This document shows, piece by piece, positions 4,172 through 7,240 of a DNA stretch of 15,986 nucleotides. The stretch lies in IMG/VR virus record IMGVR_UViG_2636415712_000006. One strand, 5' to 3'. The DNA comes from a virus (taxonomy: Duplodnaviria > Heunggongvirae > Uroviricota > Caudoviricetes). A program made the translations under genes and the position numbers. Positions within the stretch are counted from its first letter, which is position 1. Each line of letters begins with the position of its first letter. The notes under the pieces are model-generated. The model saw nothing but the letters and a program-made list of their open reading frames with translations, made no database searches and had not been told where the DNA came from.

Positions 4172-5780
4172 ATGCATGGGTTTATCTGGTTTACCTGGTT
4201 CATTAATGGGGGTTCACAAAAGAGCTCAGAGAGAAGGATGGCTCAAGAGAAGAAGAGAAGGAATTAGAGGGGTTGCTTACGAATACCATATATCTTCTCT
4301 TCCTAACATTGCTCGAGCTGAAGTTTTGCTCCAACAAGGAAAATTTAAAACCAGTCAGGGATGTTTTGAAATCGCCCGCCCCACGCTGGAAGCTCATGAT
4401 TATGATCGTGAGGCACTATGGAGCAAATGGGATAAAGCCAGCGATTCCCAGCGCAGCCTGGCTGAAAAATGGTTGCCCTCAATTCAGGCCACAGACGAAA
4501 TGCTGAACCAGGGGATTTCAACGAAAACGGCTTTTGCGACCGTTGCAGGGCATTACCAGGTCAGCGCATCCACTTTGCGGGACAAGTATTACCAGGTACA
4601 GAAGTTTGCGAAGCCTGACTGGGCGGCTGCACTTGTTGATGGACGTGGAGCATCCCGTCGCAATGTTCACAAAAGTGAATTTGACGAGGATGCCTGGCAG
4701 TTTCTGATTGCAGATTATCTGCGACCGGAAAAACCCGCCTTCCGCAAATGTTATGAGCGTCTGGAACTGGCAGCCCGCGAGCATGGCTGGAGTATTCCCT
4801 CCCGTGCCACGGCCTTTCGCCGGATTCAGCAACTGGACGAGGCAATGGTTGTTGCCTGTCGTGAAGGTGAACATGCACTGATGCATCTGATACCGGCACA
4901 GCAGCGAACTGTGGAACACCTGGACGCCATGCAGTGGATCAACGGCGACGGTTATCTGCATAACGTCTTTGTACGCTGGTTTAACGGTGATGTGATCCGT
5001 CCGAAAACATGGTTCTGGCAGGATGTGAAAACCCGAAAAATTCTGGGCTGGCGCTGCGATGTGAGCGAGAACATTGATTCAATTCGCCTCTCGTTCATGG
5101 ATGTTGTGACTCGCTACAGTATCCCGGAGGATTTTCACATCACCATTGATAACACCCGTGGTGCTGCGAATAAATGGCTGACGGGAGGCGCGCCCAATCG
5201 CTACCGCTTTAAGGTAAAAGAGGACGATCCAAAAGGACTGTTTTTACTGATGGGTGCGAAAATGCACTGGACAAGCGTTGTTGCCGGTAAAGGCTGGGGC
5301 CAGGCAAAACCTGTTGAACGTGCTTTCGGTGTTGGTGGGCTTGAGGAATACGTTGATAAGCATCCGGCACTGGCTGGCGCATATACGGGGCCAAATCCGC
5401 AGGCAAAACCTGATAACTATGGCGACCACGCTGTTGATGCAGAGCTGTTTCTGAAAACCTTTGCCGAAGGTGTGGCGATGTTCAATGCCAGAACAGGCCG
5501 TGAAACAGAAATGTGCGGGGGCAAACTCTCGTTTGATGATGTTTTCGAGCGTGAATACGCCAGAACGATTGTGCGTAAGCCAACCGAAGAACAAAAACGG
5601 ATGCTGTTACTGCCTGCCGAGGCGGTGAACGTTTCACGCAAAGGCGAGTTTACGCTTAAAGTTGGCGGCTCCCTTAAAGGCGCGAAAAACGTTTATTACA
5701 ACATGGCATTAATGAATGCCGGAGTGAAAAAAGTTGTGGTCAGATTTGATCCACAGCAGTTACACAGCACGGTTTATTGA
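4146..5780 (+). pseudogene. A: MuA-type DDE transposase, C-terminally truncated (544 of about 663 codons) by IS600; the stop codon is supplied by the IS600 terminus
   Basis: ORF begins [32 protein letters not shown]... and continues through a sequence I recognise as the MuA core to ...[15 protein letters not shown], then hits TGA at 5778-5780, which is the first triplet of the IS600 terminal inverted repeat. The C-terminal domain III is missing. Confidence 0.85.
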
Positions 5781-5841
5781 GATAGCCTGAGTTTAACGGA
5801 CACTCCTTCCTGAAATAGAATGGCATCAGAAGGAGCTAATA

Positions 5842-6144
5842 ATGAGCAGAAAAACCCAACGTTACTCTAAAGAGTTCAAAGCCGAAGCTGTCAGAACGGT
5901 TCTTGAAAATCAACTTTCGATCAGTGAAGGCGCTTCCCGATTATCTCTTCCTGAAGGCACTTTAGGACAATGGGTTACCGCCGCCAGAAAAGGGCTCGGT
6001 ACTCCTGGTTCCCGCACGGTGGCTGAACTGGAATCTGAAATTCTGCAACTGCGTAAGGCGTTAAATGAAGCTCGCCTTGAGCGAGATATATTAAAAAAAG
6101 CAACAGCGTATTTTGCACAGGAGTCGCTGAAAAATACGCGTTAA
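5842..6144 (+). CDS. IS600 OrfA (helix-turn-helix / leucine-zipper transposase subunit)
   Basis: 100-aa ORF MSRKTQRYSKEFKAEAVRTVLENQLSISEGASRLSLPEG...LRKALNEARLERDILKKATAYFAQESLKNTR, typical IS3-family OrfA. Preceded by GGAG 7 nt upstream. Confidence 0.85.
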   Translation: MSRKTQRYSKEFKAEAVRTVLENQLSISEGASRLSLPEGTLGQWVTAARKGLGTPGSRTVAELESEILQLRKALNEARLERDILKKATAYFAQESLKNTR

Positions 6145-6998
6145 TCGAACAATGGCGACAACAATTTCCCATTGAAGCGATGTGTCAGGTATTTGGTGTA
6201 TCCAGGAGCGGTTATTACAACTGGGTACAGCATGAACCCTCAGACAGAAAACAAAGTGATGAGCGGCTAAAACTGGAGATTAAGGTGGCACATATCCGCA
6301 CTCGCGAAACATATGGAACCCGGCGGCTCCAGACGGAGCTGGCAGAGAATGGCATCATCGTTGGTCGTGACCGACTGGCACGTCTTCGTAAGGAGCTGAG
6401 GCTACGCTGTAAGCAGAAACGCAAGTTCAGAGCGACTACGAACCCGAACCACAATCTGCCAGTTGCGCCAAATCTGCTGAACCAGACGTTCGCTCCTACA
6501 GCACCAAATCAGGTCTGGGTGGCGGACCTGACGTATGTTGCCACACAGGAGGGATGGTTGTACCTCGCTGGCATCAAAGATGTTTATACGTGCGAAATTG
6601 TCGGCTACGCCATGGGAGAGCGCATGACAAAAGAGCTGACAGGTAAAGCCCTGTTTATGGCGCTCAGGAGCCAGCGCCCACCTGCCGGGCTAATCCACCA
6701 CTCTGATCGAGGTTCACAGTACTGCGCATACGATTACCGGGTCATACAGGAGCAGTCTGGTCTGAAAACATCAATGTCGCGTAAAGGTAACTGTTACGAC
6801 AACGCTCCGATGGAAAGCTTCTGGGGAACGCTGAAAAATGAGAGCCTGAGCCACTATCGTTTTAATAACCGGGATGAAGCCATCTCAGTAATACGGGAAT
6901 ACATTGAGATTTTCTACAATCGTCAGCGTCGTCACTCTCGTCTGGGGAATATCTCCCCGGCAGCCTTCAGGGAAAAATATCATCAGATGGCTGCTTAA
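6096..6998 (+). CDS. IS600 OrfB (DDE integrase-core transposase; expressed as OrfAB fusion by -1 ribosomal frameshift)
   Basis: The -1 frame is open from 6081 and carries an IS3-family OrfB (...KYALIEQWRQQFPIEAMCQVFGVSRSGYYNW...HSDRGSQY...). The A7G slippery run at 6093-6100 sits at the end of orfA in the correct phase for -1 frameshifting. ORF-track coordinates from the first Met are 6180..6998. Confidence 0.8.
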   Translation, partial: KSNSVFCTGVAEKYALIEQWRQQFPIEAMCQVFGVSRSGYYNWVQHEPSDRKQSDERLKLEIKVAHIRTRETYGTRRLQTELAENGIIVGRDRLARLRKELRLRCKQKRKFRATTNPNHNLPVAPNLLNQTFAPTAPNQVWVADLTYVATQEGWLYLAGIKDVYTCEIVGYAMGERMTKELTGKALFMALRSQRPPAGLIHHSDRGSQYCAYDYRVIQEQSGLKTSMSRKGNCYDNAPMESFWGTLKNESLSHYRFNNRDEAISVIREYIEIFYNRQRRHSRLGNISPAAFREKYHQMAA

Positions 6999-7041
6999 AA
7001 AAAGAACAAATGGTAGTGTCCGCTATTGCCAGTACACCTCA

Positions 7042-7240
7042 ATTCTTTGGCATTTTTTACCTCGTTACGCGCGTCTGTGGCTTTGCCAACGGATACTTCC
7101 GCGTGCGCACGAGTGAACCAGTGCGTGGCAACGTCTTCCTCCACAACATGACGGCCTTTAACAAACTCGCGCCGAGAACCGTCGGGAAGCGTGAGCACAA
7201 ACGGGGTATGTACGTGTATTACTGCATCATTTTTTGCCAT
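7042..7240 (-). pseudogene. Phage head-module gene downstream of the capsid-like gene, 3'-truncated by IS600 (first about 66 codons retained)
   Basis: Minus-strand ORF starts at 7240 (MAKNDAVIHVHTPFVLTLPDGSRREFVKGRHVVEEDVATHWF...) with AGGA 7 nt upstream. The frame runs into the IS600 right end at 7041, so the last 15 codons of the tracked ORF 6995..7240 are IS-encoded. Confidence 0.5.

Follow-up and report, generated by a model that had tools for sequence, protein, structure and literature searches.

The DNA described here is a stretch of 15,986 nucleotides, hereafter the window, from a Caudoviricetes record of IMG/VR (IMGVR_UViG_2636415712_000006). It contains one complete copy of the insertion sequence (IS) IS600, which joins the transposase gene A of a Mu-like prophage on its left to the head module of a different prophage on its right. 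The features that form this joint are the following.

2917–5777, plus strand: left-end remnant of a Mu-like prophage, identified by alignment to Mu coordinates 1–2962, by Pfam domains and by reading of the sequence.
4146–5780, plus strand: truncated open reading frame (ORF) for the transposase MuA, 544 of 663 aa, with the domains HTH_Tnp_Mu_1, HTH_Tnp_Mu_2, DDE_2 and a partial Mu-transpos_C.
5775–5777, no strand: left 3-bp flank TAT, native Mu sequence.
5778–7041, plus strand: complete IS600 of 1264 bp with orfA and orfB inside, delimited by direct reading of 5600–7300.
7042–7044, no strand: right 3-bp flank ATT, native sequence of the second prophage.
7042–7240, minus strand: 5′ 199 bp of an STY1053-family gene without its last 23 bp; the open frame continues into IS600 (ORF 6995–7240).
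7282–12785, minus strand: head module, identified by Pfam domains and by collinearity with prophage locus L108 of genome FDAARGOS_944.

The element at 5778–7041 has the 1264-bp length, the TG...CA termini and the imperfect terminal inverted repeats of IS600. Its left terminus reads TGAGATAGCC (TGAGATAGCCTGAGTTTAACGG) from 5778 and its right terminus CAGTACACCTCA (GCCAGTACACCTCA) up to 7041; the left repeat is TGAGATAGCCTGAGTTTAACGGACACTCC and the right repeat, as its reverse complement, is TGAGGTGTACTGGCAATAGCGGACACTAC. The two-ORF layout of the IS3 family is present, with orfA (5842–6144) encoding a Pfam HTH_Tnp_1 domain and orfB (6180–6998) encoding HTH_21, rve, rve_3 and rve_2 domains; gene callers merge the two into a single 385-aa product. 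Copies that carry the IS600 annotation in RefSeq match it at 99–100%; this copy is 99.3% identical to its best RefSeq Escherichia coli matches, which are annotated IS600, and more than 99% identical to nearly all of the complete Shigella flexneri copies that we surveyed. The 3-bp direct target duplication of IS600 is absent. As an earlier note on this DNA had pointed out, the flanking trinucleotides differ, being TAT at 5775–5777 and ATT at 7042–7044, and the missing duplication is a matter of what happened to this copy and does not put its identity as IS600 in doubt.

In order to establish the IS600 boundaries and the frequency of matched flanks, we surveyed all IS600 copies with a right end in two S. 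flexneri-type chromosomes, CP182556.1 and CP178302.1. These were retrieved from a species-representative genome collection by an IS600 OrfB look-up and a scan for the right-end 20-mer, and were read as 8-kb tiles in record orientation. All 45 complete copies were found through an exact match to the right end CCAGTACACCTCA, and 41 of them start with TGAGGTAGCC. Identical trinucleotides flank exactly these boundaries in 16 of the 45 copies, where about 0.7 would be expected by chance. The conserved ends and the 16 exact duplications exclude the possibility that the IS600 ends are offset, so that both the 5778–7041 span given by the earlier note and the 3-bp rule are sound. A megablast match that starts 13 bp to the left of the element had raised such an offset; on direct inspection it proved to be a chance extension into an unrelated ST131 flank. 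The remaining copies, 29 of the 45 and thus the majority, have unmatched flanks (9 copies matched and 17 unmatched in CP182556.1; 7 and 12 in CP178302.1). A missing duplication is therefore not unusual for an IS600 copy in S. flexneri.

On the left of the joint, the MuA reading frame follows phage Mu collinearly as far as Mu coordinate 2962 (window 5777), where Mu reads TAT|TGCTACACC. The truncated protein ends in HSTVY at residue 544, and its in-frame stop codon, TGA at 5778–5780, is made of the first three bases of IS600, in agreement with the earlier description of a transposase cut after codon 544 and stopped by the IS terminus. Neither the window nor the flank of any IS600 copy of the two genomes contains Mu sequence past coordinate 2964, and no Mu or SfMu sequence past gene A codon 544 was found near any IS600 of these genomes. 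The TAT is native to Mu and so is presumably one half of the target duplication made by an original IS600 insertion in gene A.

On the right, an intact relative of the STY1053 gene reads GGCAGACTTTG|ATTCTTTGG at the break point. From 7042 onwards the window follows L108 collinearly from position 33164 down to 27397, at about 99.2% identity. The prophage at L108 lies downstream of ybhA and has the order integrase, recE, cI/cro, replication genes, tRNAs, lysis genes, a DedA gene, terminase, portal, head genes, STY1053, DUF4054, a 15-kb tail module, tail fibres and DUF4376; in the sister genome FDAARGOS_943 the same prophage runs on with ipaHb and then pgl. The head module on the right flank is thus not the Mu head module. 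It belongs to an ipaH-carrying prophage that is normally integrated between ybhA and pgl, and it is entered in the window by its 3′-truncated STY1053-family gene; that a phage head module of opposite orientation, truncated at the 3′ side, lies here had been proposed from the sequence alone. The ATT, native to this prophage, would presumably be one half of a duplication made when another IS600 copy inserted. FDAARGOS_943 (NZ_CP065615.1) and FDAARGOS_944 (NZ_CP065613.1) are labelled E. coli in RefSeq; FDAARGOS_943 has ipaHb and many IS1 copies, and on this account the two genomes look like Shigella or enteroinvasive E. coli.

The Mu-like prophage has a separate chromosomal address. The features to the left of gene A are as follows.

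1149–2534, plus strand: dcuC, anaerobic C4-dicarboxylate transporter, identified by the Pfam DcuC domain, an exact protein named DcuC of Shigella and gene context.
2575–2877, minus strand: 3′ fragment of dpiA encoding the C-terminal 100 aa (NCBIfam DpiA, profile positions 127–226 of 226), which abuts the Mu left end.
3254–3763, minus strand: c repressor, with an HTH_Tnp_Mu_1 domain.
3917–4171: ner, with an HTH_35 domain.

The gene that the Mu-like phage entered is dpiA, adjoining dcuC. The attL of the remnant lies at window 2917, where TGTATTGATTCACTTGAAGTACG aligns to Mu coordinate 1, and the order Mu left end, c, ner, A is that of a Muvirus left end. The window does not hold a complete Mu prophage with full A, B, late genes and right end, as A stops at codon 544. 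On the E. coli K-12 map, the positions are about 0.65 Mb for dcuC/dpiA and about 0.80 Mb for ybhA/pgl; given these map positions, the two flanks of the element derive from sites about 145 kb apart. The joint thus connects two unrelated contexts, as the earlier note had held. We find these to be a Mu-like prophage in dpiA and the ipaH-carrying prophage of ybhA/pgl, and the two segments are not adjacent in intact Mu, D108 or SfMu or in the intact head prophage, which excludes natural adjacency.

The gene A of the remnant is about 98% identical to those of Mu and SfMu. In contrast, its c–ner region (2917–4171) matches Mu, D108 and SfMu poorly, so that the remnant stems from a Mu-like phage with its own immunity type; with the whole c–ner–A stretch as query, the best match (93%) was in E. 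coli UMNF18. The 544-aa MuA keeps all of the DNA-binding domains and the DDE core. It might be retained as useful to S. flexneri, for example as a dominant-negative transposase or as an end-binding protein that gives partial immunity to SfMu or Mu-like phages, as opposed to being a neutral relic; we regard such a role as highly improbable.

A second Mu-like left-end remnant was observed in S. flexneri near yeaG. It consists of an attL, a c-like gene, a ner interrupted by IS600 and then a short 5′ fragment of gene A (loci L085, positions 1–2104; L053; and L027, positions 4391–6862). Two genomes show the IS600 of this ner with an AGG duplication; in CP026765.1, yeaG stands in place of its right flank, a loss next to the element that is specific to that strain. 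Such differences between strains at the same IS600 copies show that the process is continuing.

The window is itself S. flexneri chromosome. The exact 544-aa truncated MuA is encoded in many complete S. flexneri chromosomes, e.g. CP001383.1 (at about 0.70 Mb), CP012137.1 and LM651928.1, and the exact protein occurs in 945 blocks of the collection index. The gene order dacA...pagP, dcuC, Mu remnant, IS600, head module is invariant, additional strains with this joint emerged from a second look-up that started at the terminase, and all of the S. flexneri genomes retrieved (about 15 assemblies) share it in identical form. It also carries a mark of its own. In the left inverted repeat, position 5 has A instead of G (G5A; TGAGATAGCC, window 5778–5806), a change that is private to this IS600 joint, being present in 1 of the 45 complete copies of the two surveyed genomes and in all five joint copies checked in other strains. 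Dozens of IS600 copies per genome are a classic cause of misjoins, and a misassembly across this repeat could in principle create such a structure. We give this explanation almost no credence, because the identical joint recurs in many independently sequenced complete genomes and in hundreds of contigs, and because the private change travels with it. The joint, common to independent strains with the same flanks and the same G5A change, is thus real and is older than the diversification of the sampled S. flexneri.

Further to the right, strains differ. In two strains (L018 and L019) a terminase and lysis fragment directly adjoins the ybdL, cstA and ent genes. The other retrieved strains have at that place an inverted DUF1133–tRNA–holin segment, an IS600 and the primase/nin region of another lambdoid prophage. 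The right side of the prophage remnant is therefore still rearranging.

The rest of the ipaH-carrying prophage was traced through the IS600 copies of the two surveyed chromosomes. At the pgl locus of S. flexneri, only pgl, ipaHb and DUF4376 remain (to L108 47974, flank ATG). Beyond DUF4376 lie an IS600 copy with unmatched flanks (ATG and TAT), a 926-bp recE fragment (L108 13505 to 12580), a second, inverted IS600 copy and then L108 13503 to 15255. The halves of one single TAT duplication (L108 13503–13505) are thus on two different IS600 copies, and testify directly to recombination among IS600 copies within the ipaH prophage. The IS600 at the pgl locus has a right flank, TATTGGCTACG, that resembles the flank expected for the lost part of Mu A, TATTGCTACACC; this flank was rejected as a candidate, being in fact sequence of the prophage recE region.

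A similar split was found at an IS911 insertion at L108 22422–22424, where the halves of a GTG duplication are on two tiles. One of the tiles is contiguous with the window head module and the other carries the early-region segment L108 16687–22424. As the two sets of fragments overlap in those 3 bp only, they represent one prophage copy that was broken apart, as opposed to two copies. That an inversion took place is seen from the head and early blocks, which have the reverse orientation relative to ipaH–pgl, and from dcuC and pgl, which share the plus strand in one S. flexneri chromosome, whereas they are on opposite strands in K-12. The tail module (L108 33176–47960) adjoins no IS600 copy in either of the two genomes. 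In total, the ipaH prophage of S. flexneri is split into at least three pieces.

These fragments bear on a simpler history, in which an independent second prophage of the head type was situated directly downstream of Mu, close to dpiA and ybdL, and one recombination between directly oriented IS600 copies deleted the DNA between them. The head/terminase fragment that adjoins ybdL, cstA and ent in L018 and L019 would fit such a deletion, as these are the genes expected beyond dpiA. However, the fragments on the window side and those of the early region are exactly complementary and share only the 3-bp IS911 duplication, as pieces of one split prophage would, and, compared with ipaH–pgl, the head and early blocks are in inverted orientation. 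We consider the single deletion very unlikely.

Our preferred interpretation, to which we assign a probability of about 0.78, is that the IS600 at 5778–7041 is a recombinant joint produced by multi-step IS-mediated inversion and deletion in the ancestor of S. flexneri. According to this model, one IS600 copy would have entered the transposase gene A of the Mu-like prophage in dpiA, beside dcuC, at a TAT target, and a different copy would have entered the STY1053-family gene of the ipaH prophage, between ybhA and pgl, at an ATT target close to the 3′ end of that gene. Homologous recombination among these and further IS600 copies, in at least two inversion or deletion events, would then have left a single IS600 that is bounded on its left by sequence from the first insertion site and on its right by sequence from the second. 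The last step would have been RecA-type recombination between two IS600 copies. The net loss would comprise all of Mu from codon 545 of A rightwards, the adjacent 5′ half of dpiA and the tail module of the ipaH prophage, and the head module would have been relocated next to the Mu remnant.

The requirement for at least two events comes from orientation. As judged from their flanks, both original IS600 insertions had the same orientation in the ancestral layout and lay on the wrong sides, so that a single deletion would remove what is retained and a single inversion would join the wrong halves. Both one-step histories from this layout were rejected on the orientation and sides of the insertions. 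The earlier note's reading of the joint, as recombination between two IS600 copies by inversion or deletion, is supported: the flanks come from two prophages, the trinucleotides differ, and the swapped duplication halves on nearby IS600 and IS911 copies are the direct mark of recombination between IS copies. It needs refining in that one inversion or one deletion would not suffice. A model with four steps was also tried: an inversion between the IS600 in gene A and the IS600 in recE, an inversion that makes the joint, a deletion that removes the tail module and an inversion of the 926-bp recE fragment. All of the observed flanks follow from this model, which would also place the pgl locus only a few tens of kb away from the window. 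However, the protein accession numbers of the truncated MuA (ADA73029) and IpaHb (ADA73238) of strain 2002017 differ by 209, which implies further large rearrangements between the two and contradicts the four-step model unless further inversions took place. We therefore do not claim an order of events.

The junctions that would complement the joint were searched for, as the earlier note had suggested. On the IS600 copies of CP182556.1 and CP178302.1 that keep the right-end 20-mer, and as far as the left flank lies within the tile, neither the right-end flank TATTGCTACACC (TAT and the 3′ end of Mu A) nor the left-end flank CAGACTTTGATT (...TTTGATT, the tail side of the STY1053 gene) was found, and junction queries against 5,426 complete E. 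coli genomes returned neither reciprocal nor precursor junctions. The pattern of a reciprocal inversion with both recombinant IS copies kept was thus not seen. Sampled DUF4054 homologues and cluster members include no S. flexneri member and no IS-derived N-terminus, and are uninformative on the tail-side reciprocal junction.

Several points weigh against the multi-step history. The partner flanks of both original insertions are gone, and the origin of this copy from two insertions is therefore something that we infer. In strain 2002017, additional large rearrangements separate MuA from IpaHb. Our IS600 catalogue is made of copies with the exact 20-nt right end, and copies at tile edges show one flank only. 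Finally, an intramolecular event driven by the transposase would give an identical final structure.

This last possibility is the main rival for the final step. It holds that a lone IS600 in Mu gene A underwent a transposase-catalysed intramolecular event, by one-ended attack or by an adjacent deletion from an IS dimer, in which the right end attacked the STY1053 gene and the intervening DNA was deleted or inverted with no duplication. The product that it predicts, one conserved flank and one new flank with no duplication, is what the window shows. The element is complete, with orfA and orfB intact, and the second Mu-like remnant provides an example of a strain-specific change in the right flank only (L085, with its AGG duplication, compared with L027). 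However, members of the IS3 family transpose by a copy-out/paste-in pathway via a circular intermediate, of which adjacent deletions are not a normal product. In addition, the swapped halves of pre-existing duplications at neighbouring IS600 and IS911 copies are explained only by recombination between existing copies, and a prior inversion would still be required to place the head module on the right side and in the right orientation. We therefore hold the lone-element event to be unlikely, and favour recombination among several IS600 copies.

The remainder of the window, to the right of the joint, contains the following features of the head module and two further IS elements.

7282–8223, minus strand: major capsid protein (DUF2184; Pfam).
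8260–8724, minus strand: cement protein gene, called as 118 aa here and as 168 aa in the intact relative.
8728–9948, minus strand: DUF2213 protein (Pfam).
9952–10734, minus strand: MuF-like protein (Pfam).
10586–12052, minus strand: portal protein (Pfam).
Up to 12785, minus strand: 3′ part of the large terminase gene, the last part of the head module.
12786–14116, minus strand: IS2, simply inserted into the large terminase gene with a 5-bp target duplication; the annotation of the relative names it IS2.
14117–14809, minus strand: 5′ part of the large terminase gene and the start of a 254-aa upstream gene.
14810–15986, minus strand: IS911 copy that runs off the window end and disrupts the 254-aa gene upstream of the terminase.

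The cement-protein gene seems to have a truncation or a frameshift at its 3′ end. The window flanks of the IS2 map to L108 27397 and 27401, a 5-bp overlap. The related prophage of FDAARGOS_943 has an IS2 in the same terminase gene, 214 bp away (L010, positions 11769–13314), while the gene is intact in FDAARGOS_944; the IS2 copies of the window and of FDAARGOS_943 appear to be independent insertions in two lineages. Among the retrieved genomes the IS911 at 14810 was seen only in CP026772.1, which marks it as a recent, strain-specific insertion.

The joint records the inactivation and scrambling of two prophages by IS600 and IS911 before S. flexneri diversified. As it is common to every sampled S. 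flexneri genome, it could serve as a phylogenetic or polymerase chain reaction marker. It is also a worked example of how rearrangement histories can be rebuilt from the halves of target duplications; it involves no new mechanism and has little importance beyond bookkeeping.

Three known systems can be compared with it. The near-intact ipaH prophage of FDAARGOS_943/944 has a collinear head module that is about 99.2% identical to that of the window; in contrast, the S. flexneri copy is fragmented, its tail module is found beside no IS600 and its head piece is joined to a Mu remnant. Cryptic Mu-like remnants common to S. flexneri strains were previously inferred from hybridisation, as Southern bands were common to most strains (PMC4406740). 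A Mu-related remnant common to S. flexneri is also what we find, and the Southern bands fit such remnants. That study did not map this remnant or its IS600 boundary, and the remnant described here differs in having its own immunity region and in comprising only attL, c, ner and A codons 1–544. Lastly, the expansion of IS elements in Shigella, including IS600 and IS911, and the inversions, translocations and deletions that they mediate are well documented, and one inversion between strains Sf8401 and Sf301 was attributed to IS600 (PMC1550401; PMC7373316). We found no published description of this specific junction. It is one specific, old case of a shuffling that is already known in kind and is ordinary for the organism. 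As in the published rearrangements, a multicopy IS3-family element acts as portable homology, with the result that flanks come from different loci, prophages are destroyed and genes are lost (PMC1550401; PMC7373316). The difference is not one of kind but of age, as this joint predates the diversification of S. flexneri, whereas the published inversions are between strains.

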